Of a stretch of 64,000 nucleotides of DNA, positions 2,728-36,700 are shown piece after piece. The stretch's first letter is position 1; the number at the start of each line of letters is the position of its first letter. Origin of the DNA: Lingula anatina (Eukaryota; Animalia; Brachiopoda); NCBI GenBank assembly GCA_051362555.1, contig CM120640.1:36599967-36663966 (forward strand), given 5' to 3'. Position numbers and translations under genes: made by a program. Under the pieces are notes generated by a model. It was not told the origin of the DNA. It saw only the letters and a program-made list of their open reading frames with translations, and ran no database searches.

Positions 2728-2930
2728 CTTTACTGTAGGTCAAAGGTCATGTACTGATAATGTTGCATTCGCGTATATACGGAATACCCCGATGACTCCG
2801 GAAAGTAAATCTGTGTATTATAAAATCGGTTAAAGCTTTGTGATAACCTTGTATTTATTTCATAAAATTTGTTTGGTAACAGGACTTACAATTCCAAAGA
2901 CAATAAAAGCTGGACATGACAGGCAATGTC

Positions 2931-5900: not shown

Positions 5901-8900
5901 TAAGCAAACAATTTTAATATATACCTTGAAATAATGGTAGGATCACAGGAGTGGTTCATAAGGCTGGCAGTTGGGTATATAGCTGTTGCTATTCTCACTT
6001 GACTAAGGCTGTCCACTAAGGATTCTGTTGAAAGGGAGGATGTCTGAAGCTCTGTTATGGCATGAGCATTACATATCAGCTGAAGCACATGTCTTAATAA
6101 GAGTCCACCAATGTAAACTTCATCATCAGATGTGATCTCAGTGGCCTGCCTTGTGTTACTTAAGTCTTGAGCAGGACGACCATCTGCTTCATTTTTAGCA
6201 GAATATGCACTGCAATCATTCATGCTTTTCTCCAATGTCAGAGTGCTAAGACTTTCAACATTTTCATGGTTTGTCTGGTTTTTGTAGAGATTTTTTGATT
6301 GGCCATCTTTCATGAAAAAATTGCTTTTCTTCAGACATTTTAACAAAAGAGTCGCTGTCTGGAAACATTCAAGTTAAAGTTTAATTTACAACAAAAATTT
6401 ATAGAAAGTTTTTTTCAAAAAGAAAAAAAATAATATATTTCTTTATCGAGATTTTATAAGCTTTACAAAAAAGGTTAAAGACTTAAATTTTGTCATTGTT
6501 AGCTTCCTACCCAAATCTGACACTTCTTTTCTCCAGATGTGGCACAATTACCCCTTTTATTAAATTATTTTGACAGTGTGTGTAATAACTGAAAATTATA
6601 TTTACCAAAGCATAATGAAAAAGGTCCTCTGGCTGCATATGTTCACTGTGTGTCATAAGATGGTACACTGTCTCATAGTCAGTGCCATACGAACCATTTT
6701 CTGATAGTCCTGCTTCAGATGGACTGCAGATGCGAGATCTTAATCTTCTGAATGCTAAAATGATTGATATGTAACATGAAAACAGTTATTATCATTGTAG
6801 TGGATTATAGGAGTAAAATTTGTCAACTTCAGTTCATGATTCAACCAGTCTGTGTATGCCCTCAAAGACATGCATTAAAGGATTTTCAGGGCTAAATTAT
6901 GTAGATTCCAATAATAATCCAACAAAATTTTACACCTACCTAACAGTTTTTGCAGTCCACTAACCAGTACCACTCTAAAACTAAGATGTCCTATGCCAAT
7001 CTACAGAGAAAGGAGGAAACACATATATAAATGTAAGAAAGGTGAAAAACTTCACTTTTTCTTATACTGCTACTCCCTTTGACCACTTTTAACATCAACA
7101 CCCAGACTAAATAATACACAATTTGATTATTTCCTTGGCTGATAATTTCTATATTTTCTTAAATTGGACAGATTACAGCACTCTAATACTAATAAATTAT
7201 CAAAAAAGAAGTCAACATTTTTTAGAATGTTTCATCTTACAGAGTGCATTATCTCCAAGTAAGGGCATTCAATACAATGATAACTGTCCCACGATGCATC
7301 TCTGCACTCCTCAGAGCAATACTGCACTTCAACACATTGCTGACAGCTGTAATGAAGAGAAAATTTTGCAGCAAAACTGACAAAAAAGAACGCTGTTATA
7401 ATTAAAAAAAAAAAAAAACAGCCCCATATGAGTAATACTTAATATTGGAAAGTATTCCATAAAACTAGTTTTAAAAAGTACCTTAATTGACACTTATGGT
7501 ACTGGTAAATCAAGCTAAATTAGAGTTAATGATCAAAAGCAAACAAAACTGCAACACTTGTATTGTTTATATATATAATTAATATTCAACTATTTATAAG
7601 TGGTTTTTTTTTTCAGTATAGTGTTTTGGAGAAGGCACACAGTACAGGTTAACTCACGGCACAGAGCCCAGCAGTTTGGTAAAGCAGTGGTGGCAGTGTG
7701 TGTCATACTGGTCTGGTAACAGAACTGCTGCATATGGCTTCTCTACAATCAGCGTGTCCCCTGCTGCAATTGACTGGTTTGCCTTTAAAACCAAAGAGAT
7801 GTACTGTCAACTTCAAAGTGCACAAATGTATTTTGTATGTGCACAAATGGCCAGAGGCATAATAATAATTAAACACACACACACAAAAACACACACATGC
7901 ACACACTCATCTAAGACCAAGTCCCAATAAGTTTTCAGGCGATGAAAATCATACAAATTGCTCTACTATGCATCCATTGACTTTTTCCTTCTGACCAGGG
8001 AACTTAGAGACATTTTACACAGGAGTAAAAAGATAAAAGATCTTAATATGGTGTTTGAAACCAAAGACAGTGTTCCTGAGCCCAAACTACCAACACCTAG
8101 AGTTGAAAAACAAACTTTCTTGTTATAAAATGATTGTTAGCTTGCCGTTCACTAAAAGTTAGCAGAAAAAGAGATTTGACAGCATGGCACTGTACACCTG
8201 AAGTTGCATTCCGTGAAACACTTAATCACACATTGTAAAATCCTCATTAACTTGTATTACCACTAGCTAGAAGATTTATTTATTTACTTATATGAACAGC
8301 AGAGACACTAGCTATTTAAAAAAGGATGACTACAGAAAATTAAATCAAACTTTTTGGGAAAAAGCAAAACTTCTTGGATGTCTTTCCATAGTGGTTTCTG
8401 CAGTTCTCTTCTATAAATAAACTCGAATGACCCTCACTTGACAACTTATTTGACCCCATTGAATGAATCACGATTTGTGCATGCGCAAGTGGGAAATGCA
8501 TGGAAGCACATTTTGAGTTTGGAAAAGATGTCTTTATGAAGTCTTTAAGTATTTTGTACCATTATGGCCTCTGCAGGTGAATCAAGATCTACATTTGGCC
8601 CTCATTCTATTCCTGAAACCGAAACTGATGATCTGTACCTGGCTCAGTGAGAAAACTCAACGCGTTTAACGTGTTTCTTGCAGCTAACCGCAAGTTGTCT
8701 CTCCTGGACGCCTATGCAGAAGACCCCATAGTAGTGAAAAATAAACGCGTTTTGTTTAATAAAGTGAGGGAGATGTTGGAAAAAGCTGGCTTGGGTTTCA
8801 CTCCCCAGAACATGGAAACTGGGAAAAACATCACGCATGCATTGACAAATAGCTTATGGTTCATTGACCCAAGCCTGGAAACTTTAAGAGAACGTGCATT

Positions 8901-11900
8901 TCACATCCCAGTTCTGTTAGGCTTCTTCTGATCATCAGGACCATGTTCAATATCCAACTTTGTTATTGTTTTAGAACATTGTTTTAATAAGAAACTGGAT
9001 TATTTGTGTATAAATTTTTAAATTAAAACATATGTTTTATTCATGTCTGTTTTTTACAAAAATGTTTGATTCTAGATAGGTGATGATGGTCATTACCGAA
9101 GCTTTGATGAAGTGTTTGGTACCCAAACAACAGAAGAACATATGTCGTCTTTCAAGAAACCCTACAAATCTGTTACTGCTCATGCAGGCCACTGGATCCC
9201 TTTTTCACCCAGTGCACAGACTGCTTGAGCGTGCAAGATGTGAGGACTGTGTTGACTGCGAGAGACCACAAGATCAAGAATTTGATCTTTTACACCAGGT
9301 GTTAGATCTGTACCAATATTCATGTTTCAGTGTGTTACAGGATCTCATACCAGAAGATCCCACTAGAGCACCCAAAATATCTGCACTGTTTAAAAGGGTT
9401 TTTGTTAGGGCAAATCTTGATCGTCATATAGTAATATTGAAATTCCTCACTTCAGCTCAAAGAGTTTTCCACAAATCTGTTTTTTTTTTCTGTGGAATAG
9501 CAAACAATCTAGTCACTGAAGATGGTCATTACCCTGTTTGTAATGGATGCACAGATCATCCATCTTAAGAAATGTTAATGGAACGTTTTGGAAGAGAAGA
9601 AAAATAAACTGCAGAAAACGTAGTTCTGGTGTAAACTTGATTGTGTACACTGTTGTGATGTTGAGTTCACATACAGACAGTGAATATTACTGACTGATAA
9701 CTTTGGTGTCAGTATAGACAGACATTTACAAAGTCTGATAACTTTTAGTTTTTAACTTCAACAACATTCATATTATTGTTTTAAAGTTGTTGAGAGTTTT
9801 ATGCAACATTATAATAAATTTGTGACTAGAAGTTCAGTGTAGCAGCAGTGTTTATATCCTAGAAATTGCAAAATATGAAATGTCCTGATCTTTTGTCATC
9901 TTGCCTCTGCACTTATACTAGAGAAATTTACTCTTACAAATTCATGTATGATGCATTGGTTAAGCTTTCATTGTACTATTCTAAAGTATGGTGTCAAGTA
10001 TACTTTTATAATGATATGAGTGTACCTATAATGATGAGCATTTTTACCAAAGTAAAGCCAAGTAAGCATCGTTTAATTAAAAAAAAGACCTTGCTCACCT
10101 GTTTCCGAACTTAAGAAAAAAAAGCCCTCCTCCCTCACCTTTTTTTTGGGGGGGAAAAAAAGGGAAAAAAAACTCCCGACCTCATCTGTTTTGGAAAAAA
10201 GTGGCCCGAGAACCAAGTAATTAATTTTTTTTGGCCTCAGTGACCAGCAATGCAGCAACTTACAGAGCATCTTTCAAAATAAAGATAATAAAAAAAAGCT
10301 GTATTCAAATAGTTGTAAAAGATATCCTGATACAGTCAATAACTACAGTCAAACCTACTATCCATAGTCAACAGAAGCTAGCTCACCACAAAAGCCATGG
10401 ACCAGGATGAGTTGAAAAATAAAAGAAAGGAGTGATGCCAAAAGAACAGTCACAGTAGCTGCAAAGTCCTTAGAACAAGCCATTCGTGTGAGAATAACAG
10501 AGAAAGATTCAGCTGAAATATTAGAGAGAAAATACCTACATTTTTTTAGAAATAACAAATGAGCACAGAGTAATATGTGATACCAGGTAAATATAACAGC
10601 ATTGATGAGAGGTGAATTTATTGTCATTAGTGTCTGATAGCTTGCTTCTGACCTGTGAAAGTTTCTGAAACTTGGCGTAGTTGCAAAAACAATTTAAAGG
10701 AATGTAGAGCACTTGAAATGAATATAAGTTTGAAAGGAATAGAAAAGAAAATAGTGATTCAAGTAGCAGTAGTTTTATGGACTTATCACAACAAGCACCA
10801 AAAGGAAGGGGATATATTTTGTATGCATTTGTTGCTAAAAACAAATTTAAAATGGCCTGTGGCAAAATGATCCATATTGTCACAAAGTGTATTGGTACGC
10901 CAAGCTCAGGAATCGTACATTTGAAGATTGTATGAATTACTTTCATGTGAAAAATGCAATTCTCAAAGCATATGTATTACTACTAGAAGCTTACTTTAAT
11001 AGGATTATACCAAACATTCCGTGAATTAGTATTAAAACAATGGTGTTAATCAAGAAAGTCTTGATCTGATTTTGGCAGACATAGACAAATGCTTTTGGGA
11101 GCAGAATTGCATCTTGGACACATTAAAAATCCATTCAGAAGACAGAAATGTGCATGCTAACAATCTTAAAATCAAATGAATTCTTTCCTGCTTGGCTTTA
11201 AAAATAAACACCTGGGCTGTATTGGTAATAAAGAAAGACAAACTCACCACCAAATATCTTCCCTGTTTTTCATTGTATTTCCACCCTACAGCAGCAGATG
11301 CCTGCAGGATAACAGGATTTGGCCCATGGCTTAATGGCGGCCACTCAGGCACAGGTGGTGCTGCAGAGCTGTAAATTTTACAGATATTACTTAATTTATA
11401 AAGAAATGATTTCAAGGAATAAAATAAGTATTTCATTATAATAATATACAACCATTACCAAAATATACTTATAGAATAATGCACTGTGCACACATTTGCT
11501 ACTAAAGGCACTGTCACAGCTAGCATAAAGAAATATGTATGGGTATTGTATGTGACATCAATTATACCCACAACTTTGAGCACACAAAATCACTGTTTCA
11601 AGAGTATTAATATTAAGATATAAGCAGCATACAAAATTGTTTTTGAACATGCTCAGAACATTTTATCTCAGTCCAGATTTGTGAACACACAACAGCGCTT
11701 GCTTTCATACTCTAGACAAATCTGTCATAAGTCTAACGAAGCCCTTGCATGTGTTTGTGATATTTTTTTCATATTTTGTGCTATACACTAGGTGCGACAG
11801 TGCCTGAATGGTTGGTGCATTGTTAACTGCTCATACATCACAAATGTGGTATCACATTATTCAGCTCTTTTCTATGACCACTATGATTAAATATAACTTA

Positions 11901-14900
11901 CAATAGAAGAGAAATAAAAGTATACAACTGTCTGAAATTGTTTTGATTTAACTCATAAAATAAACAGCATATATAACACAAAACCCATACCACATGTAAC
12001 TTTCTGAAATTTTGTCCACTTTCTTGTTCAAGAGCAACAAGTCATTCACAATGGTATCTGAATAAAAAAACCCAGAAAATTAAGCATTTAAGAAAGCAAT
12101 ACCACATTAACATTATGCTATATATGTAAGTGGCAAAATGTTTCATTTCTCAGATCTGTTAAGGTAAACCAGTAATCATTTACCTGTAGATAATATGTAC
12201 TTCAAACTAATTTTTCAATCTTTCACATACAAATCTACTTTGAAAAAAAAAATTATTTCAAATAACCTCTTCTTTTACAGGCAAGTTCTGAATCCAAGCC
12301 GGCTATTGCCTCTTTTGTTGCCTCTATAGCTGAAAAGGAAAACTTACTGTGTATGACAATTAAACTGATCTATTCTACTCTTTAAAAAGTAAATGAAATT
12401 TGTAAAAAACCCAATCGTTTGAATGATTTTACCCACCAATTACAGTCAATTTACAACTACTAATTCAGTAAGTCCATTAATCAATTTACAACTTTGTGGG
12501 TTACCAAAGAGATTCTAACAACAGGGGGAGAAAATGATAACAGAAGATATAACTAATTTAAAAACAAGTCTTTAATTACCTGTCTGTGCTTCAAATTTTC
12601 TATTTAATGCACAATGGCATTGTGCCTTCCTGTGAAGCAATTTATATGTAAGATTCTGTGGGTAACCATTGTCCAAAGCTCGGTTGATATCATTTAGGCA
12701 GGCCTGAAAAATAATCAAAAATAATTAAAAACTTGTTTGCACTTTCAATGTTCATACTAGAATGAATTTAACCAAAATGGCCACAGGCCAAATCATCTCA
12801 TTTTTCAGTCACCACACTAATGTTTTTCTTAAACATATCTACTACAATATGTTGGTCTTGCTACTGTATATGAGCAAAGTTAAAAAACACACTTTGATTA
12901 TGACATTGATAACAGTTAGATAGCAGTTTGGGCCAGATTTCACATCATTTTACAGACAGAATATGTCTTTCAGGGGGTAGAAAAATTGATAGATGGAAAT
13001 TTTGGAATTATATTTCTTGTCAAATTTTCATAAAATCCCCTGGTTTGCAGGCAGCCACTGGTCAGCAGCATGGTCAGTTGACAGCTGCAGGTTTTCTAAC
13101 CTCATACTTTCCCATGTGGTATAAAACTGCAGACCTATTGGCATAACCCAGGGCCAACTCTGGACTGGATTTGTTGCTGGGGGCATATTGGATACTCTGA
13201 AATAGAAGTATATGGAGAATCAATAGATATACAGACCTCATGGGTATGTGCCACCAGCTCAGTTAGGCCGCATTCCCATAGACACCATCAGTATAGTGGA
13301 TCTACCCAACTCTGGGGAGACTCTTGATGACTATAATTACCTTAACTGAATGACAAACCTCTTCCTGGTGTTAAGTAGAATACAGAAAGCTGTGTTAATG
13401 ATTTAATGAGTACATTGGAAACATGAGGAGGCATGTCATTCAGTTAAGCTGATTGCACTTAGCAAGTCTCTGTAGAGTTTGGTCAATCCACATATTAAGT
13501 GTAACGATGGTGTCTACAGGAATGAGGTCTTAGGAACATTAACAAGATACTACATGTACCACATTGTGATACTTACAGAAAATGTACTGAAACATGTAGA
13601 GTGACTATCAAAGAGTGACCCCCCATTGGTACAAAGTGAATGCTGTGGATGTGTGAGACTGTATCAATGACAAGGTCACTCAATATAAGAAATTTGATAG
13701 ATAAGATATTTTAATAATGGGTGAACATATTTTATCATAGTTATAAACCTGCAGCAAAATAACTAGAATAAAGTATTAAGAATTTAAAATCCAGAGGCCA
13801 TTTAACAGCCTGACTTAAGACCTAGTTTAAGTTACCTTTGTATATAAGTGCAAAGCATCAGCATTAATCTTATGCTTGAATTTCAAGTTGCCTTCTTCGC
13901 GGTATGCTCTTGACTTGGCAGTGGACTTCTCTACTCTCTGGTCCGATGAAGCCTGATCAAAGTAAGGTTCAATCCATGGCACCTGTCTGATACATTGTAA
14001 AACAATTAATTGACATTTGCCCATATTACACATGACAGGCAAAAGCTGAATTATACTTGTATTATATTGGCAAAAACAGAAAGTGTTATTAACTTCGAAC
14101 AAGAGTTGAATTTCTTTATCAGGTAGGTTGTTAAAATTCATTACAGGATGAGACACGTGTTCAGACTGAAATGTTCAGTTTAGAACACTGAAGATTGATT
14201 AATTTGATCCCATTCCCCAAAACACCATCAGCTGATGTGGATCAACTCAACTCTCACTAAATCCAATAAGCTTAACTGAATGACACCCCTCCTCTTGTTT
14301 CAAACATACTTGTATAATAAACTTATCTGCATTCTAATTAATGCCAGGAGGAGCTACGTGTGTCATTCAGGTAAGCCAATTGCATTCAGCGAGAGTTCCC
14401 TCACAGTAGGGACGATCCACATAGACTGATGGTATAAATGGAAATGGGGCCTTTGATTAAAGCTTTATAAAGGAGACTAGCTGGGACTTGGGGAGTACAG
14501 ATGATACCAGGTGGCGCCAGTTGTTTTAAATTAAAGTTTTGAAGGGGAAACCTAAATTGAACTTTTCAAAAAAATTGGTGGCAAAAAAAAATATATGCAA
14601 AGAGTAAGTTATTCCAGGCATGTCAGATTTTTGGAGAATTTGGGAAAATATTTATTTTTTAAGACTAATTGTTACCCCTCCCCTAACTCGTTCCCCATTC
14701 AGCGAATGGTGGTCAAGTTCTACTTCACATGCTTTAGAAGATACATTGTATCAATTTGCATTCCCCATATACAGTTTTCACCTATGTCCCAATATTCTTT
14801 CACTTTGACCACTATGGAAAATACTAGCATCAAAATTTAAACTGTGTTCAAGGCTAGCTTCTTTATTTATTGGGTAACAAATTTAAGTTCCCATGGCATT

Positions 14901-15731: not shown

Positions 15732-18700
15732 ATGGCGGTAGTTGGGAAGCTAGAACTGTTGATCGTTTCTGCATTGCTATTACTGACAGCTTGCTACAGT
15801 AATGTTCAGCGTGGATACAAAACAACGCTAAAATCCGTGGCATCGTCCGAAGGGAAGCCGTGGCCTATTCCACAGCTTTACATTCCCACACCGACAACGT
15901 ACACGTTGAACAGTGATTCCTTTAAAATCAACCCCACAGGGAAAACTTGCGATACACTTGTGGCTGCTATGACTCGATATTACAACGTGATCTTCTACCC
16001 TGGCCGACAAGATGATGCGTTACGATTCAAGCCTATTAGTAAATCTAAACTGACTGTTGGCACAGAGCTGCCATATCTAAATGTTAATTTGGAAAACGAC
16101 TGTGAAATTTACCCATCTTTGGATATGGACGAGTGGTGTATGTATAAAAATTAGCGTTAGTTGTTGTTTTGTGTAAGAGGAAATTTTGGGATTTTTGTGG
16201 CCTGTCTTCAACTGATATCAGTTTAGTAGACCAGCACTGTAAAGCTTTGAAATTGAAATTCAGTATATATTTCCTAAAAGGCTACATACAGTGTTTTAGT
16301 ATAAGCAAAAGGAAAATTTTCCCTATTATGTAACGTGTGGATCAACAAACCAAAAGTTCAATACCATTACCAATAGACTTTTAGTATAAGCAAAAAGAAA
16401 AGTTTCCCTGTTATGTAACGTGCGGATCAACAAACCAAAATTTTAATACCAATAGACTTGCAAATTTTTAATATTATTATTATTATTTATTTATTATTTT
16501 TTTACAAGAAACTGGTAAAATATCCTCTAGCAACTCATGATAAGGGGAACAAAGAAGCAGATACAACATTTTCTCATATTTGAGCATATTTCCATTGGTG
16601 CATTTTACAGATCAGCTGTTTGTGAAGAGTGATGGTGCTATCCTCACTGCTCGCAGTATTTGGGGTGCTTTGAGGGGTCTAGAAACTTTTAGTCAGCTTG
16701 TGTACCAAACTCCTGATGGAACGGTAAGATGATAGTCTAATCATGCAGCTGAGAAATATAACACAAAAAAACATTTTATGTTATGTTTTTCTTCTTATGG
16801 GATATATATATATATATACTAGTACTTTTTAAATTAAAATTTTCACAAAGTATTAAAATGATTCAGTAAAAACACTTTGCAAATATATGCTGTAAATTTT
16901 AATTATACCTGAACTGTTTTACTTCAGTGGGATATTTTTGCATCATTTTAGTTCACTATCAATGATACCAAGATAGAAGATTACCCAAGATTTTCTCATC
17001 GTGGACTTCTTATTGATACTTCAAGGCATTTTGTTCCAAAAAAGATTCTTCTGCAAAATCTGGTAAGTGCAACCATCATCACATATAAGGCACAACATGT
17101 TCCCATAAGTTTTATGTAATTCTTTATACTGAATATAGTTTTCTCTTTATGCATTAAATATGTTAGGTTCTTCATTTAATGTATTCATTTATAACATTAA
17201 GTGCAAATGCATATTAAAAAAAGAAAAGAAAAAAGGCCCTCACATTAAGAACTTAGCTTATATCAGATTCAGTGCAAAACATTTTTGTCCAGCTTTATGA
17301 AGGGATGATAAACAGTCACATGATGGTGGGCGTCTTCAAAGGTCCAGGCACCCACAGCCCCATTTAGGCTATAAATGATTGTTGGCTTATCGGTAATTTT
17401 TCAAGAGCATATCATATTAACTGTATTTATCAGTTTTCACAGCTTAAACTGTAAAATGTTGAATGCCCACCAATTATGCCCTTATTTGTTATCTCATGCA
17501 GTTACATTGTACATATACCTGACCTTAAGCTGTAATTTTAAGCCCATGAACATTGGCAGTGGGTAGTAGTTTGCACATTCAACAATAAGGTTCAGCAGTT
17601 CTGTTTTCTTGCACTAGTTTTAATGAAACATATATTGTGTACACAGTGTATGTTTCATTCTTCTTTTTTTTTCATAAAATTCACAACTTACATAAATGAG
17701 CTCTTATTATTATTATAAAATTTCTGTATTTTTTGTTAAACATTTATATAATTTCGTTGGAAATGCCTGGATCCATATATCTTGAAAGGGATAGCATAGG
17801 CATGAAAAAATATAATTAATGTCAAAACACAAAAACATCCAATTGATCTCCGTCTCTTAGACCCAGTTTTCTTCCCTTATCATAGGTTGTGCATTAGTTG
17901 CATTTCCACTCTGTGATTCTGTCATTGTAAAAGAATGCAGTGTGCCTTTACACTCATACAGGTTATCTTAACTCTGTTTTACAGTTTCTTTGAATAATTT
18001 TAAAGTGTGTGCACTACAATTACAAATCATGTCAGGTGTTTGGAAGCTCTGTGTTTATTATGTGGGCAACATTGTCAAAACTTTGTGAGACATGTTAGCA
18101 TTTTGTTTTCTTATCAGATTAAAAAATGATCAAATATGATTTGGTTTGGTGATGAAATGGAAATTTAGATATGAAATGGATATTTGCTCAATTTTTCCAT
18201 GTATCTGTTGATAAAAATTTAATTTCATGTATTTTATTAGCATCAGTCATCAGGGCTTTACTATCACATTGAAAAGCATGTGAATCATGTGTTATGTTTG
18301 ACAACTGGATAAGAATTTTAATTCTTTTTAATTTTGTACGATAAATATTGATATATGATAAGATAATGGATATTAATACAAATATACAATGGTGAAAACA
18401 TTTGGCAAACACTTCCTCTTTAAGCTTTGAGCTGTTGTGAAGTATTGTATTAATCATTGCATAACATGATAAATATTTTATGTGAGTAAAATTAAATCTG
18501 AGAACTGAATAAATTAGGGCAAACTTTGTAAACTCCTAAAACAGCAAAATGATCAGAACGGGATATAACCATAGGCCTACAGCATGTGGAGAAGCTGCTG
18601 AATATAAGATGGACCTTATAATGACCAAGTTTTATATCTAAACACAATTATCATTTTAATTTTTCATAGGGCATGATATACATTTTATGAAATAAAGGAA

Positions 18701-21700
18701 ATACCCTTGTATAAGAAGTAATTGTTTTAAATCATCTTTGCCAGTTTTTTCTTTCTCTCTAATATTTTCTAGGATGCCATGGCCTACAACAAATACAATG
18801 TGTTTCACTGGCACATTGTCGATGACCAGTCCTTTCCATATCAAAGCAGACACTTTCCAGAACTAAGTAATTTGGTGAGTAGGATATGTTTTATCTTTTA
18901 TTAGTTTTATTGTGTTGATTTTTATGCATTTTGTGTTTGTTACCTGTTTCAAGGGCATGTAGTGCCTGGGGATGTGTTTTGCAGACAGCATAATAAGGTT
19001 GAACTATAAGGTATAACTATAAACACCAGACAGCTACATTATATTTTACTGTCACCATCTGGAATACTTGCTTGGCTTTAAGGTCACAATTTGTATTCAT
19101 GATATCAGTCATTCATTGTGTAAAAATGAATTCAGAAGTAAGTCTTCTAAGAAAACTTCCTGGTCCCAAGTTGCAGTACTGATACTTATTGTTGTGATAA
19201 AATAAGTGTTGAAAGGATGTTGATAGCTCTTTGGGTAAGGGAGGCCTCTTTGAATGCAATATTTATTTTCATCCCCAAAAACTCTGCTTTCAGCTCAAAT
19301 AAGCAAATTAGCCCTGATATATTTTTGATGTGTTGCCATTGTTTCATAATATGACAATGTTAACGTTCATATTATTTAAATTGATAAAGAAAAAAAATCT
19401 CATGTATTGGTCCCTTTTAGTGGTCTAAATCCAAGACCGCTTTAACTTAGTTGACTAAAGCTGTCTCTTTGAGTTTAGCAGATTTAGCAAAGCCAACTGA
19501 CCTAAGTTTTGCATGAACTGGGACCATGACATAAGTTCATGTTTGGTGACTATTACAGGGAGCATATGACCCACACACCCATGTGTACAGCCAGCAGGAC
19601 GTGGCTGAGATAATTGAGTATGCCAGGCAGAGAGGAATCAGAGTGATACCTGAGTTTGACACACCTGGTAAGTGATTATAGATGACCAGCTTCACCTCTA
19701 CAACCCACTCCACCCCACTTCACCCCACCTCACCCCACCCATATCCCCCCTCTTCATCACTAACACTATTGCCACCAAAACAAGAAATAATCCTATGGAA
19801 TTTTTTGCTCAGACTTACAAAAAACATTAGTTTGCTATTTTGATTGACATTTTTTTTAAACTCAAAAATTTAAACTCAAAGGGAAAGTCGTTTTTCAGGA
19901 CACAGTGAGTCTTGGGGCCCGGCCATTCCAGGTCTGTTGACCCCATGTTACAAGAGTGGGCAGCCTGATGGCTCCTATGGTCCCATTGATCCCACAAAGA
20001 ACAGTACTTACGATTTCCTGAAAGTGATTGTCATGGAATGGACTAAGGTGTTCCCAGACAAATATGTCCACCTAGGAGGTGATGAGGTGTCATTTGACTG
20101 CTGGTCAGTATGGCAGGTCACAGGTTAAGAAAGAAAATTTAAAATGATAAATTGTAACTATCAAAATCATTGATTTTACCTTAAACTATTTAAACCACAT
20201 CTGGTTTATACTTGGACCTATTTCTAATAACCTGAAGATTTGAAGAATTCAAAATGTACATATTTAATCAAAAAAAGCCAATTTGAAATTATGTTCACAG
20301 GAAAAGTAACCCAGCTGTTACCCAGTTTATGCAGAAGATGGGATATGGAACAGACTACTCAAAATTGGAGCAATACTATATGCAAAAGTGAGTTAACCAG
20401 GCACAAGATGAGTATAGACTGAAGGGAAAATTCTGCTTATTCTTCTTATATTTATTTCACTGCAGAAGCATAAAAACACTTGTCAGCAGTACTCAAAAGT
20501 TATAAAGATTACTTTATATAAGTACATTTGTAATACATCATACCATGCAAACCATGTAAGAAATTCAATTTTTGCAAGATGGCTCAAAGGTATACATATA
20601 TTACAACAATTTAAAATTATACAAAAAAAAATTCTCTAAAAGTAGGTATAAGTAAGACACCATTTTGTCTTCTCTGACTGATAATTTGGATGAAATGATG
20701 TCCCTAGTTTATTAAAAAAGCAAAACGATAATAGATGATTGTGGTAGACACTTACATGGCTTTTCTTACATTTCCAGTATCTTGAACATTGTGTCCTCGG
20801 ACCAGGATAATTTGGATGAAATGATGTCCCTAGTTTATTAAATAAGCAAAACGATAATAGATGATTGTGATAGACACTTACATGGCTTTTCTTACATTTC
20901 CAGTATCTTGAACATTGTGTCCTCGGACCAGGATGGGTATGTGATATGGCAGGAAGTAGTGGACAATGGAGTCAAGGTAGGATATATAGGATGTGTAGGA
21001 TATATAGGATATGTAGGATATTTCACATCTGCCATCAGTCTACACATGCCACCAGTTAAAGTTTTTATCTTACATGCTATGATGTCTTTGTATGGAAAAA
21101 GTAAACTATCTTTAAAATATTTTGGCAAAATGAAATATTTGATTTGAAAGTGATGTAACTTTCATATTATTCTGTTTAATAAATGACAAAAATCTTTTAA
21201 AGATTAAATGTGGTGGCAGTTAAGTTAATTTTACTAGTAAAACACAGAGGCAGAGCAGACAGGTAAAACCATATGTGGAATCTATCTATATATTTGTTTG
21301 ATTTAATTTAAGATTAGATTTATTTTTTAGAAAAAAAAATTAATCTAAATCAGACATCAATCAGGTCTCATCAGTAAAATGTTTTTAGCAGTTGTGATCA
21401 GATGTGAAGTCAAATGTTACCACAGTGGAAGGAAAAACATATATTTCAATCATTTATCCAAATATGTAGTCGCATCCTTTTTAAAGGATAATAAAAAATT
21501 AAATAATTTTAATTAGAAGGCCATCTGATTTCAGCCATGTGTAAGAAGTTTATCTGTAACATTGAAGTGCATTAGCCCACCCTCCTTCCTCTCAAAAATT
21601 AAATGACCATCTTCTTGACATTTTAATTTTTCTTGTCTTTTTTTTCCTTTGGCAGACATATATCCTATGAAAGCCCTTTTGCTTAATTAGTATGTTAAAC

Positions 21701-24700
21701 TTTACAAAATTACTATCTTCATTAAATATTGTGGTAATTGATGGATGCTTTTGATGTATGAATTGGTATTTGGTTAAAATTTTTTGTCATTAAATTAATT
21801 GTATTTTTTAGTCACTGGATGTAATCAGCATTATAATAGTTAATCTTGATATTTAACTGAACAGTCATCAGAAATTCAAATTTTGTTAGAATATTGAATT
21901 TTGGTTTTGACCATAGAAAAAAATGAATGCAATGATTAGTACAATTTGACCAAGCTTCTTGTGTTTGGTGAATGAGATGAGAGACAGGAAGATACAAAAA
22001 AATTAGTCTTCCTGAATAAATATATATGAAGTATTTATTTAGTAGCTTGATTTAATAACAGGATATAGTGTACTGGTAGATACATGTTGTGATAATCTTT
22101 CAACTGTATTTGCCAAACAAAAAACAGAAATGAATGAAATTTCAGCTGAAAAAGTGCTCTTAATAACTTAAAGAGCTTAGTGTGATAAATGTATGTGTGT
22201 GCTTAGGTACGTCCTGATACAGTGGTGGAGGTATGGAAAGGGGGCTTCCAGGCTGAAATGAGTAAAGTGACTCAGATGGGACTTAGGACTATCTTGTCCT
22301 CACCCTGGTACCTTAACTATATATCCTATGGTCCTGACTGGCCCAAGTACTATATAAATGATCCGCACAATTTTAATGGTAAGTTAAACAGAGATTTGGA
22401 TGGCAGGACTCTGGTGGCTGGCTTTCTGTCGGTGTTCTTTTAAAAAAGAAGTGATATTTTCACATGGTTGCTGAAAGTACTAAAAACCTTTTTTTTTTAC
22501 TCCATACACCTTCTTCTTTTTTTCAAAGGCAGGCAGCAGGTAATGGTTTAAGGTGTTAGATCAATAAATAAAAATGAAATCTACGTGAAGATCAAGAAAA
22601 AAAAATTATTTGCCAATATTTATAGTGGGTAGTTAACCTTTGGGTAAAGGTAGAGGTGGGTCATGGTCAGGGCCTGAATGCTGTTATTTACCATATAGTC
22701 AGCAAAGATAACCATCCTTAATATTGTCTTCTTGTAGTGATATGTGTGCATTTGAAACACTTGAGCATTTTTGGGCAACATGAAAATCTTGATGCTATGG
22801 AAGTTGCGTCATTAATATATTTCATTGAAGGATGTTTCTGGTTAACGTGGTGTTGAATTTGTGGTAAAGGTCATCAAAAAATCAGTGGATTAGCTTCTTT
22901 GGTGTTGTTTAAGGCAAAGGGCTGTTGGTTCTGCTGGGGTCTTTGTTAAGTTAGAGGAGTGATTGACCAGTATCTTAGGTAGAGGACATAAAAAACTTCA
23001 AAAACCATTTGCAAAATGTGTGTTTTAGAGGATAGCGGGCAGTTAGGAAAAGGAAAAAAAGTGTGTCAGATTGTAATTGAATATTACCAATGACAAAATC
23101 ATAATTTTTAGATTTTACATATAAAGAATTATTGAATATCATCTTTCTTTATAGCAGTGATAAATGGAAATGTGAGGTTTTCTTCGGTTAATGTTTTCAA
23201 AATCGGTGATATTCAATGAATGAAAATATGAAGCATCTCACCATGTAATGTTTGTGCCAGTTTCTTTCAAAATTTAAGTCCCATTTTAATACACTTTCAC
23301 CATTTCAAATATTTTTACATATCATATTATCCATTACTGTATCAATAACAACAAAACAGGAGTAAAATTTCAGTCTTAAGTGAGCTGGGTATGGTAAATG
23401 TATACATGTGTGCTTAGGTACGTCCTGATACAGTGGTGGAGGTTTGGAAAGGTGGTTACCCTGCCGAAATGAGCAAAGTGACTCAAATAGGACTAAGGAC
23501 TATCTTGGCCTCTCCTTGGTATCTTGATTACATATCCTATGGAACTGACTGGCCCAAGTACTATAGGCCAGACCCCCACAATTTTAATGGTAAGTTAAGA
23601 TATGGCGCAGCAATACTCTCATGGGAAGGTTTCTGTAGGAATTGACTGAAAATTAAAAAAAAAAAAAATTCACTCTTAGTGTGCCTCTCTCCCTTCTCTG
23701 AAGACTTGCAAGACTGTGGTTTAAGTTTTAATTGTTTGAATTATTTTTCAGATTATTATCTATAGTTTGGATTTTTCTTATCTGGAACAGTTTGGATTTT
23801 TTTGTTTGGTTTTAAACATCTACTAACAATGATACTTATACTCTGTGTTGGGGACTAATACATGTAATATACCAGTGTGCACTTTTACCAAAGCCATTTG
23901 CCAGACGCTTACAAAGAGGAAGCAAACTAATATATACCCCATATATGCATAGAATTTAAAACATCAGGGAAGGAGAATGGAAATTGTCACATATTGCTGT
24001 TAAAAGTCCCTTTTTCAAATATTTTGCATTGTCATAAACTTTGAGTTTGAGTTCTCAAAGAAAAAATATGAAAGCAATATTCCAGTTCATAGATAATAAA
24101 ATGCTTATCAGAAAGGTTTTTGCACACTTAACAAAACTGAAAAGAATGCATCTAGTTCACAAGTAGGCTTTTTTTTTAGCAAACTGTTCATGCTGCGATT
24201 CTCACAAGTTGACCTGCTTTTTATGTGTTATTTAGCTTATCACAATGCTTTTTTCTTCACATCTTCAACCCCATACCCCATTTTACCTAGCATTTTTTTA
24301 AAGAAGAGTGGATTCCCATTTCTCCTCCTAGTCTTACAGAGAAGACAGCATGCAAAATGAAGGTTGTTTTACCATTGTTATTATCACCATTATCAGGCCC
24401 GTAGCCAGGGGGGTTTGGGGGGTTTGAAAAAACCGCCCCTTTTGCTGGAAAAAGGTCCACTCTGGGTAAAGTTTGATCTAGGTACATGAAGTTTTTATGG
24501 GAAAAGGTCCACTTTTTCAAAAAAAAGAACCCCCCTTTTGAAATTTCTGGCTACGGGCCTGACTATCATTATTCTGGGCCTGTTTAGGTGAACCCTGATA
24601 CTGTAGTAGAGGTATGGAAGGACAGGCACAATCCAGCCACCTACAAGGCAGAGTTGAGCAAAGTTACTGGACTGAATTTAAGGGCCCTTCTCTCTGCCTG

Positions 24701-27700
24701 CTGGTACCTAAATGATATCTCCTACGGTGTAGACTGGCCCAAATATTATGCATGTGACCCACACGACTTTCAGGGTAAGGACAGGGTTCATTGGATAAGA
24801 AGATTATACATTTTATTTCATGGAAGTGGATAATCTCTGTGAAATTTTGCCAATAATTGCAATTTTCTAGATTCAGAAAACAAATTGCTTGATAATCCTC
24901 ATTGCCACAGTACAGTATGCTAATTTGAAACATGATATAGGTGGTTTAAATGATATATTCTGTATATGATAACAAGCATCTGATATCAGTTTGCCTCTTG
25001 GAAAGAAAACACCCTCACGATAATGTGATGGCCTTTTTAGCTACTTTTGTTAACTTTGAAAAAAAAAATGGGAAATAAAAGATAATCTTACCATTTGTTC
25101 TGAAGCTTGCAAAAATACAAAACAGGAGAGCAAAGCTGTAAAAAAAAAGAAGAAAGAAAGAAAGAAAATAAAAATGTTCATTTCAAACTACCATACTTTT
25201 AGATTCTTTCAAGCTTATAATTTATCACCCATAAATCATTAATTCGCAAGATTTTCTTTTAACAGCTTCTTGAGTTCCTTATATGCATGTCATTTTCTCA
25301 GAAAGTCTAACACTCTGTCTTCAGTGCAAATTTGCATTTCTTGGTATCTTATTTCAGTTGGTTCTCCTATTGCTATTTTCTAATGAATGTGTGCTGGCTT
25401 GTGGAATGTTTTTTTCTTTAAATAACTCTTCTATGTTTGAGTTAACAACACTTACTATTAACCATCTATTATATAATTCATTCTTGGAATTCTAATTTCA
25501 TCATTTCTAATGCCCGCCTTTCTTAGTTGTGAGAGAAATTCTTTGACACTTTTTTTTACTATATGTACGGTAGTGTTTTGTAGTGGGAGAAATAGTACAC
25601 TCCAGTATTACTATGGAGAGCCTTAGGTGTCAAAAGTTTGATTTGGATATACTAAAAATTGTGAGCTCATAACCACTACCTCGAGCTATTATAATGAGAG
25701 CATTGTAATGAAAAATCATGGGGATCTGAAGGATAATGTTATGAAATTGCCTATTACCAGAGAAACATGTTGAATTGCATAATTGTACCCTTTGACTGTT
25801 GTTTCTTATCTGTTTCCTAAAAAGCCACCAGTTTCTCTTTCTGCCATTTCTCTATTTTTTCTTATTTGTACTATAATCATTTCATATAGGAAATGTGTTT
25901 ATATATATATTTGTTATATTATAAGATGTAATGCTTCTCTACACATTTTGATTTACATGTACTCATCCATAACTTGACTTGTATTTTTTATTATTAATAA
26001 TGAAGCTGCCATTTTTTTTGAAATAGTTAAATTAATAATTTTGCAGTTTGATAATTAACAATTCTCTTATACATTTCTGTCATCATCTGAGCAACATTGC
26101 CATTGCCAGATTTCATTTTCAGTTACAATTTGAAGTATTCTTTTTTTTTTTTTTTTTTTTTTTGTAGGCACAGATGCTCAAAAGAAACTTGTTATTGGAG
26201 GTGAAGCATGTATGTGGGGAGAGTATGTAGATGGAACCAATCTCATATCTAGACTCTGGTAGGTACTTTTAGAAGCCGCAACTTATGCACCCTGAGCTTC
26301 AGAGATAACTTGCCACTAACCTCTTCACTATAGCCTATCTTCATCGTGTCAAGTTACCTCTGACGAAAATAGTTTGACCTAGTTTAGATAAGCCAATCGA
26401 ATCCATGTTTCAAAATTTTTCACCAAAGTTTGGTGAAAACGCTGATTGGTTGACCGTCAATCGGCAATCCTCGGCTGATTCCGCAAGCTCCATACTAACA
26501 ACAAAGTTATTGTCGAGTGCGGAGACATCCGAGTAGTTCCGAGTGCAAAACCGTACACAAAGAAAGCATGGCGTCTCCTACGAGTGACTACGTAAAATAA
26601 TGTGTTAAGTTATCTCTTGATTATTTGCAAAATATGAGGATATCAGAATTGAAACCAGAGCAGTTTGAGACCCTACATCATTATCTACTGAGGGATGATG
26701 TATTTTGCGTGCTGCCCACAGGTTACGGCAAGTCCCTGATATTCAGCCTTATCTTTGATTGGTCCGGATTTGAACAAAGCGCGCTTTGACTCGTTCGCGT
26801 TCATTGGCTAGATTGTTCAATGAGTCATTGAGTGCGGGCTTTAAATTTGATTGGCGGGCGGCGGGGGCTATCGAATGTGGTCAGAGGTAACTTGACACGA
26901 TGAAGATAGGCTATTGTGAAGAGGTTAGTGTCAAGTTATCTCTGAAGCTCAGGGTGCAACTTATGCTGTTAAAGGCAATAATTTTAATAAAATTGTTGTG
27001 TTTGATGCATATTTTTTGTCAACAGTGAGTTTTTCCATCTCTGCTTTGAACTTTCTGAAAAGGCAAAGCTAGTATAAGTCTTGTACAGTACACTTTTGCT
27101 GTGTTCTAAAAACGTTAGTCCAATATTGAAATATTTATCCTCAGATGATTACAATAAAATCTCAATCAATTTTTTGATAAACAATAAACAGACACCATAG
27201 GTCAGCAAGATATGCCATCACAGGCCGAGTATCAACATGGACCGATGTTACACATGTACATATATGTCTAGAGGAGTGATGCTAGTTATCAGAAAAGTAC
27301 AATTTTTTAATTTTAAAGAAAGATGTGCCTGTAGTAAAAAGAGAAAAGTACACTGAAACATTGACATTATCAGAATAATCATAACTTGATCCGGAAATTA
27401 GAAAGCTTCTTGTCATTATACATTTCCCTTGTCTTTTCAGGCCCAGAGCTTCTGCTGTAGCAGAGAGACTGTGGAGTCCCAAGCAATACAACAACACTGC
27501 AGAGGCTGCACCCCGTATTGAAGAACACAGGTGCAGGATGCTCAGGTTGGAGAGATTTGTCAATATCAAAGATTCAAATATATACAAATAAAAATGTTCT
27601 TTCTGTTCACCTCCATTTAATTATCTAGTATTAATAGTGAAAGCAAAATGTTTTAGCACATTAAGTCTTTTTGTTTAGCCATTTTCTGATTTCTAGTTTT

Positions 27701-33700: not shown

Positions 33701-36700
33701 TCAGGAGACCTAGACAAACTTAGGAAACATTTACGATCAGTAGCAAAGTAAGTTTGATTCAACATATGCATTAAATGTAAATTAAGATTAATCAGATAAT
33801 ATTCCCTTGTGCTTGGTAAATAGCTGTCTCTGGTGAGGGTTCTCAGCCCTTTGAGTATGCCATTATGGGATAAAATCTAATTAAAGCACTCAATCATATT
33901 CAGAATTAAAGAGTTCAATAAAAAGAAAGTAACTTTTGTCTCTGATATGGGGAGGACCACCTACTGTGAGTGTTGACAATGAGGTCCCATCCTTCCTTGA
34001 AGGTCATCTTCAATTTTAACTTTTGTTTGTTTTTAAAAGATTAAGGAACTTGAGAACTCAAAGAAAAAAAATTATTGCACTAAGGGTGCTTTACCAGAGA
34101 TTTAGATCGATCTAAAGATTAAGTTTTAGATCGACCTAACTCCCTGGGGGTTCACGCTAAATTGCAGTCAGTCGAGCGGGCACCATAGTTAATTACCCCC
34201 TTACAGCTTTTAGTAGGCGGGACAGACGCTTAATCCTGCCAAGCTGACAGTAATCTAGTGAGACTCCCCACAGGGATAGATCGATCTAAAAATCAATGGA
34301 AATGGGGTGTAAGGGTCAAAAAGCTTTGCTAGGGAGCTTTTATAAACAAAGTAAGATATTGAAAACATTAAGTAATTGAAATTTTATTACACGTAATATA
34401 GAAGATTTCAGTTCGATGTCAGAAATGAACAATTTTAGAACAGTGGGTAGCAGAAACTGTATTTTTGTTTATTTTTGTTTCATCTCCTAGGTTTCACACA
34501 GTGAAGAACAGGAGGCGTGACTCATTGGAATCAACAGAAAATGAAGGAAAAAAGAAAAAAATTAAAACAGTAAGAAATGGGTTTAAATGTAGGATGTTCA
34601 CGAGTTATTTTGTCTAATGTATTTTTTGGGTTGGGGAATAAAGGCAGTTTGTACATATTTCATATCAGTTTATAATTATGAGATAACAAATGTAGCATAT
34701 CCGAATATTACCAATGATTATTCCTTCACCTAAATTCTATCATATGTTAAACTGCCCGAAGAAGCAACACATGAATCCCTATCATCTTACTTTTTATGCT
34801 TCAATTTTTTACTTGCTTTTCAGGACACTGGTGCTAAAGCTATCAAACCTCGTACTTCAGGACTTAGAAACCTAGGAAATACGTGTTTTATGAACGCTGT
34901 GCTGCAGTCGCTTAGGTATAGATCATAGAATTTGAGAATATGTTTAGTGCATGCCATTTGAAGGTATAGGTTGTATTTAAACTCTGATATCCATTATAAA
35001 CAAAATCAGCTTATCTTACAGTTTACACCTGGGTTTAATGGATCTGTTTAGTCTTGAATCAGTCTCGATTTCCTTGGGAGATACAACCCTAGCTGATGCT
35101 TATTTGGCCATGTTTATTTGTCATGAGGCATACTGAATTCAAGTGATGTATTGTGTTTCAGTAACATTCAGCAGTTCTGTGGCTACATAAAACAATTGCC
35201 ATCTCTGGAAAAGAAGAAGCCTCGAGCAAATGTGACCAGGTATAGAAATGGACGAGATGATGACATGTACGTTTTTGAAGTAATTTATTTTGTAAAAGTT
35301 TTGTTCTCAACAGTTTTGAATTAATCTTCATTATATCAAAATGGTATTAGTATTATACAAAACAGATATTGTTTTATTGCTACCAATGTAAAGGAGACTA
35401 AAAATAAGTTCATGGAAAACTGATATCATATAGTAAACCTGACAGCAACTGTTATGCTGGTGCTTTTAGCTAAAATCAAGGTATTCCTGTGTCAGTTTGT
35501 TTTTTAACACGATCTGTTGATATTACTACTTTCCCACAAACATACTGCATACTGTGAATTATGAATGGAGTAAAAGATGATACTCAGTTTTCACATTTCT
35601 GTTTAACAGCTTGTCATTTTGCAGAATTGCATCATTAAATTTGTAAATGTGAAAACTGATACGTTGTTTAAATTACTAAGAATTGCATTGATTGTTCTCT
35701 TAATGCAGTTATGATGCAACCACTGTGCTGTACATCTGTAACAGCCTTTGCTGTTTAGTTTTGTAAGTCCATCTGACATGTACATTATTAATCTGCAATA
35801 GTAACTACTGACTTTTACATTTATTTTGCAGTTTGTTGGTAGAAGAACTAAGAAAAACACTGATACAACTGTGGCAAGGGAACAAGTCTGCAATCTCCCC
35901 AGAGTCACTTTTTTCTGTTATATGGAAAGTAGTGCCTAGATTTAGGTATGTTTGAAAGAAAGAATGAACATAAATTTTGTCAAATATTTGGAATGCATAG
36001 TAATTATGATGTACTTCTTATAGTTTAGTTTCAAGGCTTTTTATTGAATAATATTCTCTATTTTCTTTATTAATAACATAAACATTAATTTTCTTTGAAA
36101 TTTCAGGGGTTATCAACAACAGGATGCTCATGAGTTTATGCGGTATTTATTGGACCGTTTACACACAGAGCTTTTGACTCTTCTCCCGTACCCTAATCCT
36201 TCCAGTCCATACATAGGACCAAAAGGAAAAAGTACAATTGTGACTGCCATCTTTGGTGGTCTACTTCAAAATGAAGTAAACTGTCTTATATGTGGAACAG
36301 ATTCCAAGAAACATGACCCTTTCCTTGGTAAGGATGATCTGTTGGTGTGCCCCTCGGATGTTTTTTCACAAAAAAGGACATGAATTTTTTATTTGTTAAT
36401 GTGTTAGAATGTTTGTATAGCAATCATCTATGTAAGATTTTGTGTTCATAGTTGTTTTATTCATTAGGAGACATTTCTTTAAAAACGTGGCATAAATTGA
36501 TAAATTGGGCTGTGGTTTCCGCCATTCCAGATCTCTCTTTAGATATTCCTGATTGTAAGGAAGGACTTGTCAACTTGTCAGGTGGGTTTAGATAGTATAC
36601 ACAGCAGTAACATTTGACAGATACAAAGATGTAGCAATAATACGTTAGAAACAATTATGATTTATTATTAGAAACTATTCTACACCTACATTTCAGTGCT

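Follow-up and report, generated by a model that had tools for sequence, protein, structure and literature searches.

A 64,000-nt window of the Lingula anatina genome (assembly GCA_051362555.1, contig CM120640.1, positions 36,599,967 to 36,663,966 of the forward strand) contains a beta-hexosaminidase (Hex) gene of glycoside hydrolase family 20 (GH20) in which exon 9 is present as three tandem copies, designated 9a, 9b and 9c. The gene, as delimited by tblastn with three full-length relatives as queries, comprises 12 coding exons on the + strand between window positions 15732 and 28166 (Table 1), and exon 9 is the only coding exon that is repeated within the window. All three copies are intact, with AG/GT ends, the same phase (0 to 1) and an open frame 0. 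Translation of all eight possible combinations in the full gene model gave products of 546, 546 or 551 amino acids from inclusion of 9a, 9b or 9c alone, a stop at residue 423 when exon 9 was skipped, and a stop at residue 463 with any of the three pairs or with all three copies. Several features of a mutually exclusive exon cluster were noted: the paralogous copies lie in tandem and share one phase, their splice sites are canonical, the exons on either side are single (apart from a partly copied exon 8 acceptor), and a full-length product requires exactly one copy. Mutually exclusive use of 9a, 9b and 9c is predicted from frame arithmetic, which allows one copy only.

An initial annotation of the window, made from the sequence alone, had given the coordinates, lengths, splice ends, phase, open frames and variant motifs of these exons exactly as found here. 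Its argument that inclusion of zero, two or three copies breaks the frame is confirmed by the eight translations, and the mutually exclusive use that it proposed agrees with the frame arithmetic and with three annotated isoforms. Its description of the flanking exons as single holds for exon 10 but not entirely for exon 8, of which the acceptor and first approximately 30 nt are copied in a 126-bp tandem duplication (20680-20805 and 20806-20931, 98% identical), which may be either a true allele or an artefact of assembly; use of the upstream, in-frame decoy acceptor, with the exon then starting at 20778, leads to a stop at residue 399.

Table 1. Features of the Hex locus and its surroundings, in window coordinates. 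Residue pairs (e.g., N-Y) are those at the position of human alpha 423/424.
Feature	Position	Strand	Remarks
Hex coding exon 1 (ATG, hydrophobic leader, start of N-terminal domain)	15732..16137	+	model identical to RefSeq X1-X3 except residue 94
Hex coding exon 2	16611..16723	+	
Hex coding exon 3 (start of GH20 barrel)	16952..17062	+	
Hex coding exon 4	18773..18874	+	
Hex coding exon 5	19559..19667	+	
Hex coding exon 6 (catalytic HLGGDE, D342-E343)	19899..20103	+	
Hex coding exon 7	20301..20387	+	
126-bp tandem duplication copying exon 8 acceptor	20680..20931	+	upstream acceptor leads to stop
Hex coding exon 8 (phase 0 end)	20904..20976	+	
Exon 9a, 172 nt, N-Y	22207..22378	+	RefSeq isoform X2 (P0126)
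Exon 9b, 172 nt, D-Y	23418..23589	+	RefSeq isoform X3 (P0011)
Exon 9c, 187 nt, N-D, pocket-Trp loop 5 aa longer, Cys pair	24588..24774	+	RefSeq isoform X1 (P0127)
Hex coding exon 10 (phase 1 start)	26168..26258	+	
Inverted repeat in Hex intron 10	26286-26958		94-nt arms (90%) flanking 485 nt; resembles a small non-autonomous DNA transposon
Hex coding exon 11	27441..27545	+	
Hex coding exon 12, to stop codon	28100..28166	+	
SMYD4-like gene (presumed)	~2900-14200	-	head-to-head with Hex
Ubiquitin-specific-protease-like exon (presumed)	~36100-36380	+	downstream of Hex
Basic helix-loop-helix exon, first copy, 158 nt	58471-58628	+	presumably ARNT-like gene
Basic helix-loop-helix exon, second copy, 158 nt	59130-59287	+	presumably ARNT-like gene

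The three window products correspond to RefSeq proteins XP_013385147, XP_013385148 and XP_013385149 of L. anatina (isoforms X1, X2 and X3), the sole difference being Asp in the window as opposed to Asn in all three RefSeq proteins at residue 94, which is encoded by exon 1. Differences among the RefSeq proteins themselves are confined to residues 404-459. The isoforms are therefore already in public automatic annotation, where isoform models are usually based on transcript alignments. That collapse or mis-assembly has instead turned a tandem array of complete Hex genes into the present region, as might be imagined from tandem Hex genes in records of Pomacea, Batillaria and Strigamia, is barely credible given that exon 9 alone is repeated among 12 exons, that its copies are at least 14% diverged at the DNA level and separated by unrelated introns, and that the window is without any N. 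In this respect, the initial statement that the triplet is not a gene duplication stands.

Comparison of 9a with 9b revealed 4, 4 and 19 differences at first, second and third codon positions and replacement of 8 of 57 residues. NG86 estimates of nonsynonymous (dN) and synonymous (dS) divergence were 0.082 and 0.70, with a bootstrap median dN/dS of 0.11 (0.03-0.29) and no value of 1 or more among 500 replicates. From these figures, 9a and 9b are under purifying selection, their intact reading frames are not due to chance, and neutral evolution, which had been raised initially as a possible outcome, is not borne out for this pair. Exon 9c differs from 9a and 9b at 19-20 of the 57 residues, and dN/dS by LWL85 for the 9a/9c pair was 0.27/1.8, or approximately 0.15, with dS saturated. 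Among six comparisons of 400-nt intron flanks, only the approximately 40 nt before 9a and 9b outscored all 100 shuffles; 9a and 9b are the younger duplicate pair, with this stretch of acceptor flank in common. The exon copies have kept their open frames, whereas their introns are no longer recognisably alike.

Retention of three open frames and intact splice sites despite a dS of 0.6-0.7 (9a/9b) or saturation (9c) makes it quite improbable that a single copy is truly used and that the other two are superfluous or decaying duplicates or arose as artefacts of annotation. The locus is admittedly prone to local duplication, as seen from the 126-bp repeat at exon 8, and pyrimidines are few in the acceptors of 9a (9/20) and 9b (10/20), yet the acceptor of constitutive exon 6 also scores 9/20. 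The three isoforms annotated in RefSeq, the parallel exon 9 clusters of other phyla and the occurrence of two vertebrate exon types as spliced sequence in Logan contigs, both described below, likewise argue against use of one copy only.

All three isoforms had a GH20 catalytic domain, Pfam PF00728 (E 1e-91 to 1e-95), and an N-terminal domain 2, PF14845, and the catalytic pair D342-E343 was found in an HxGGDE motif aligned to the human chains. An AlphaFold2 model of the 9c isoform had a predicted local distance difference test (pLDDT) score of 91 and a target-normalised template modelling (TM) score of 0.96 to 2gjx_A, and its top 9 Foldseek matches were human Hex chains of 51-57% identity. By domain content, alignment and predicted fold, the gene product is a GH20 lysosomal-type beta-hexosaminidase of the HEXA/HEXB clade. 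In the alignment to human chains, W412 corresponds to beta W424, Y437 to beta Y450 and Y443 to beta Y456, the last of which we take to have a role in the dimer, and residues 439-440 align with beta D452-L453 and alpha N423-R424. The designation of the triplet as active-site exons is therefore correct for residues of the pocket wall but not for the catalytic pair, which is encoded by constitutive exon 6, while the identification of the variable dipeptide with the human alpha/beta specificity site is upheld. Asn-Arg at 423-424, the mark of a HexA-type alpha chain, is absent from all three copies, which have N-Y, D-Y and N-D, in accordance with the initial reading. Of the two peculiarities ascribed to 9c, the 5-aa insertion after the pocket Trp is confirmed and falls at the position of the alpha IPV398 loop, whereas the Cys pair is no 9c innovation, being a common state in protostome and amphioxus Hex. 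Among 374 pattern-matched segments (of 433 distinct segments), 137 had both of these cysteines, 237 had neither and none had one, and because the two covary perfectly, we infer that they form a disulfide. According to the available part of PMC3587417, alpha R424 ion-pairs with 6-sulfate or sialic acid, beta D452 repels these groups, and the alpha IPV398 loop is a proposed contact of the GM2-activator; the charged pocket is likewise described in the accessible text of PMC4774620.

Duplication of exon 9 was evident well beyond Lingula. Thus, isoform sets differing only in the exon 9 segment were noted in 10 of 16 invertebrate genera, a sample biased to records labelled 'isoform'; these were Lingula (3 isoforms), Crassostrea gigas (3), Pecten (2), Mya (4), Mercenaria (2), Haliotis (3), Littorina (2), Branchiostoma (3), Ptychodera (2) and Anneissia (2). 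Four proteins that contain two complete GH20 domains (P0001, P0005, P0012 and P0306) were kept out of the count of exon duplications, and exon 9 variants were not found in records of Pomacea, Patella, Mytilus, Ciona, Nephila or Octopus, where absence of a record is weak evidence. The initial view of the triplet as this animal's own trick, converging on the HEXA/HEXB gene duplication, does not survive the presence of the same duplicated exon in many bilaterian records.

The importance of the specificity site as a focus of divergence was evident from comparisons of 11 variant sets, i.e., those of the ten genera named above and that of manta ray HEXB. Column 440, which corresponds to alpha R424, was the one among the 57 exon columns where divergence within genes most exceeded that between species (0.86 versus 0.31); it differed within 10 of the 11 sets, and the 423-424 dipeptide was all-different within 11 of 11 (P = 4e-5 for draws from 24 background proteins). 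This test was not tuned to its result, since the site had been named beforehand in the initial annotation. Arg or Lys recurs at column 440 in variants of Haliotis, Littorina, Anneissia, amphioxus and vertebrates, and Asp recurs there in oyster, Mya and Lingula variants. Ptychodera (P0186) and Branchiostoma (P0469) each have a variant in which Gly precedes WYL and the specificity site reads N-H; it is possibly an old deuterostome variant, although the two were ungrouped in the tree. Elsewhere in the protein, Hex isoforms of Patella (P0026/P0161/P0163 compared with P0162/P0164) differ in an equal-length block at approximately residues 211-243, which suggests another duplicated exon in the same gene.

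In a 116-row exon tree, from which P0155, P0101, P0087 and P0100 were left out, 9c was placed with Tubulanus, amphioxus and spiders. By the approximately unbiased test, however, neither a clade of the three Lingula exons (p-AU 0.59, or 0.71 without the Cys columns) nor all within-species clades together (p-AU 0.19, or 0.12 without these columns) could be rejected, and trees of 57 columns therefore cannot date the invertebrate copies. A division into ancient 'Cys-type' and 'Pro-type' exons shared across phyla was considered and found unsupported; sacoglossan exons of the Pro-type fall within the Cys-type gastropods. The invertebrate copies are best accounted for by repeated duplication or by turnover of an old cluster; a single bilaterian origin of all exon 9 clusters is rated less likely and appears rather doubtful.

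Taken together, we consider it likely that the three pocket exons are spliced mutually exclusively to give three subunits, which are predicted to differ in the charged or substituted sugars that they accept. One copy of exon 9 per mRNA would yield three Hex subunits, and nonsense-mediated decay (NMD) would clear any transcript that lacks exon 9 or has more than one copy of it; this is a reasonable expectation because such transcripts have their stops well before the last junction. The 9a subunit would have a neutral default pocket, while 9b, whose Asp occupies the beta-452 position, would repel anionic substrates as human beta does. The 9c subunit, with Asp where alpha has Arg424 and a longer loop at the alpha IPV position, would keep out anionic groups and may be suited to neutral or cationic sugars, e.g., partly deacetylated chitin oligomers. 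No Lingula isoform would behave like HexA. The recurring pattern in animals would be one of duplicating exon 9, keeping an N/D-Y default and altering the pocket dipeptide in other copies.

A different role, in which these mutually exclusive exons tune dimer pairing, stability, pH optimum or activator-protein binding rather than substrate charge, seems unlikely in that it is at the known specificity column, and not at the loop or Cys columns, that repeated divergence is strongest. Such a role would nevertheless account for the presence in exon 9 of the loop at the GM2-activator position, with the 9c insertion there, and of the Tyr with a presumed dimer role together with the covarying Cys pair. 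It is also in keeping with the description of Hex subunits as completing each other's active sites (PMC3587417, available part).

Substrate switching between the isoforms is what we infer from the site that varies, and several observations weigh against it. The basic residue that drives the human switch is absent from every Lingula copy; 9a and 9b share Y440 and differ at only the 8 residues noted above; and the X1-X3 models of RefSeq are predictions. Constraint on 9c is less precisely measured because dS to the other copies is saturated, NG86 values being estimable in just 163 and 25 of 500 bootstraps. The frequency of clusters among invertebrate genera is inflated because clusters were picked for the 'isoform' label, and the 24 background proteins were hand-picked, are related by descent and may hide unannotated variants. 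Finally, no docking-site/selector RNA pairing above controls was found at the Hex cluster, although such pairing is not required of this class. A candidate at approximately 25290-25340 beat 20 of 20 Markov shuffles, yet its score was reached by 15 of 100 random real triplets, and with the best candidate docking window ranked 133 of 6395, this mechanism was rejected. Steric exclusion between the copies was also rejected, introns of approximately 1 kb being too long. Frame plus NMD is the only enforcing mechanism that can be named.

Vertebrate records contained the same duplication. HEXB isoform pairs that differ only in the equivalent of exon 9 were noted in 15 species (two Mobula, Polypterus, Erpetoichthys, Conger, Clarias, Hoplias, Seriola and seven frogs), and in 17 of 17 HEXB predictions spanning both copies, a D-type exon came first and an N-R exon second; P0059, with two copies approximately 255 aa apart, was left out of this tandem count. 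Two copies each were also carried by sturgeon P0200 and P0201, which cluster with amniote HEXA when the remainder of the protein is compared (Shimodaira-Hasegawa-like approximate likelihood ratio test, 94.6; HEXB clade, 95.5), and by Labeo P0323, which is named alpha. Early-branching lineages thus have the two exons in HEXA as well as in HEXB. The first exon copy of fish HEXA (P0323, P0380 and P0417, the first two of which are named HEXA) is strongly diverged, with a C-Y-x-C motif and an altered ISYG region, unlike that of HEXB, which is conserved. Among the products of Logan contigs of approximately 2 kb, P0252 is a full-length vertebrate-type protein with N-R, and P0292 and P0293 are such proteins with D-Y; both types therefore exist as spliced sequence.

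In protein records, the segment was single in each of 11 amniote HEXA and 4 mammal-type HEXB (one unnamed). With the two specificity columns masked, all 11 of the former were closer to the second HEXB exon and all 4 of the latter to the first, by margins of 1-9 points. Similarly, one Tyr was kept in first HEXB exons (16/16), mammal-type HEXB (4/4), first fish HEXA exons (3/4) and outgroups (11/11) and lost from the same column in second HEXB exons (16/16), amniote HEXA (11/11) and second fish HEXA exons (2/2). In the free exon tree, second exons of HEXA and HEXB joined (87/81, or 65/64 with Labeo). Counted against an origin of the pair before the gene duplication were the placement of first HEXA exons apart from first HEXB exons in that tree and the failure to reject gene-wise clades (p-AU 0.075, or 0.26 with the specificity columns masked). 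Counted against it as well is the occurrence of N-V rather than N-R in the second exon of rays (Mobula), bichirs and sturgeon HEXA, because of which Arg may have arisen more than once. Exon 9 variants were not found in records of Callorhinchus HEXB or crocodilian HEXA, although absence from the records is weak evidence.

The presence of two copies in fish and frog HEXB and in sturgeon and carp HEXA indicates that the vertebrate alpha/beta difference probably arose from an exon pair. Origin of this pair before the HEXA/HEXB duplication, followed by reciprocal loss, is likely but unproven. The evidence as a whole leans slightly towards a recurrent spliced specificity cassette, with the human alpha/beta split reflecting retention by HEXA of the second exon, and by HEXB of the first, of a pair that predates the gene duplication.

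Homologous mutually exclusive exons, as surveyed in the accessible parts of PMC9741552 and PMC7954323, resemble those of Lingula Hex in being tandem, paralogous and of the same phase with one used per mRNA, in having lengths that are not multiples of 3, in their conservative substitutions and in their repeated independent origins in orthologues. What sets Hex exon 9 apart from the surveyed clusters is that it contains the specificity dipeptide, established by experiment, of a lysosomal glycosidase; neither the main text of PMC9741552 nor six supplementary text files of PMC7954323 contained 'hex'. Human HEXA and HEXB (PDB 2gjx, 1nou and 3lmy) share family, fold and variable site with Lingula Hex, the arrangement being two genes with one exon each as opposed to one gene with three copies, and the lack of Arg424 in Lingula means that activator-dependent GM2 cleavage is not implied. 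Ray, bony-fish and frog HEXB have the same exon duplicated and isoforms that differ only there but, in this comparison by exon position, carry two copies, D-Y versus N-R (N-V in Mobula and bichirs). A history of ancestral exon pair, gene duplication and retention of one exon by each daughter is described for CACNA1F/CACNA1S and the FYN family in the available text of PMC9741552, and protein records suggest the same pattern for amniote HEXA and mammalian HEXB, a case that did not turn up in the papers searched.

No description of duplicated or mutually exclusive hexosaminidase exons was found in titles or abstract openings of the literature searched, which did not extend to subscription journals. 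Hex was not found in supplements of PMC4417111 and PMC4494069, apart from file 1 of each, which lay outside the search and may list the gene. From the accessible parts of other sources, vertebrate Hex genes have 14 exons, in a study that used longest isoforms (PMC2492878), hexb is among differentially spliced genes of a reef fish, without detail (PMC8933327), and no mention of 'isoform', 'splic' or 'MUG' was found in the portion available of a zebrafish hexb paper (PMC6772114). The initial annotation knew of no earlier description, which agrees with the literature searched but not with RefSeq, where X1-X3 are present. The exon 9 triplet belongs to a known splicing class; of interest are the site that is varied and the vertebrate history to which it points, no description of either having been found in the literature searched.

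Elsewhere in the window, two tandem copies of a basic helix-loop-helix exon (Pfam HLH) were noted in a gene that we take, by sequence likeness, to be ARNT-like. Both copies are open, with AG/GT ends, and differ at 13, 3 and 27 first, second and third codon positions. Because their length of 158 nt is not a multiple of three, they look like a second mutually exclusive pair, in this case in a DNA-binding domain. The two remaining neighbours of Hex in Table 1, an apparent SMYD4-like gene and a ubiquitin-specific-protease-like exon, were presumptively named from open reading frame translations.

If the exon 9 variants differ in specificity, they would amount to a naturally occurring collection of pockets that vary at the human alpha/beta specificity site, the same site that, according to the available part of PMC3587417, protein engineers swapped to make HexA-like beta subunits. 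If the proposed vertebrate history is true, bony-fish and frog hexb alone would make both beta-type (D-Y) and alpha-type (N-R) subunits, and fish and frog models would have to be reread, as hexb could supply both activities. Removal of >99% of total activity by loss of zebrafish hexb (PMC6772114, available part) fits with this, although dependence of alpha on beta explains the loss too. The same history would explain how the alpha/beta difference that underlies Tay-Sachs and Sandhoff disease evolved, and the Lingula triplet would be the same cassette expanded to three specificities.

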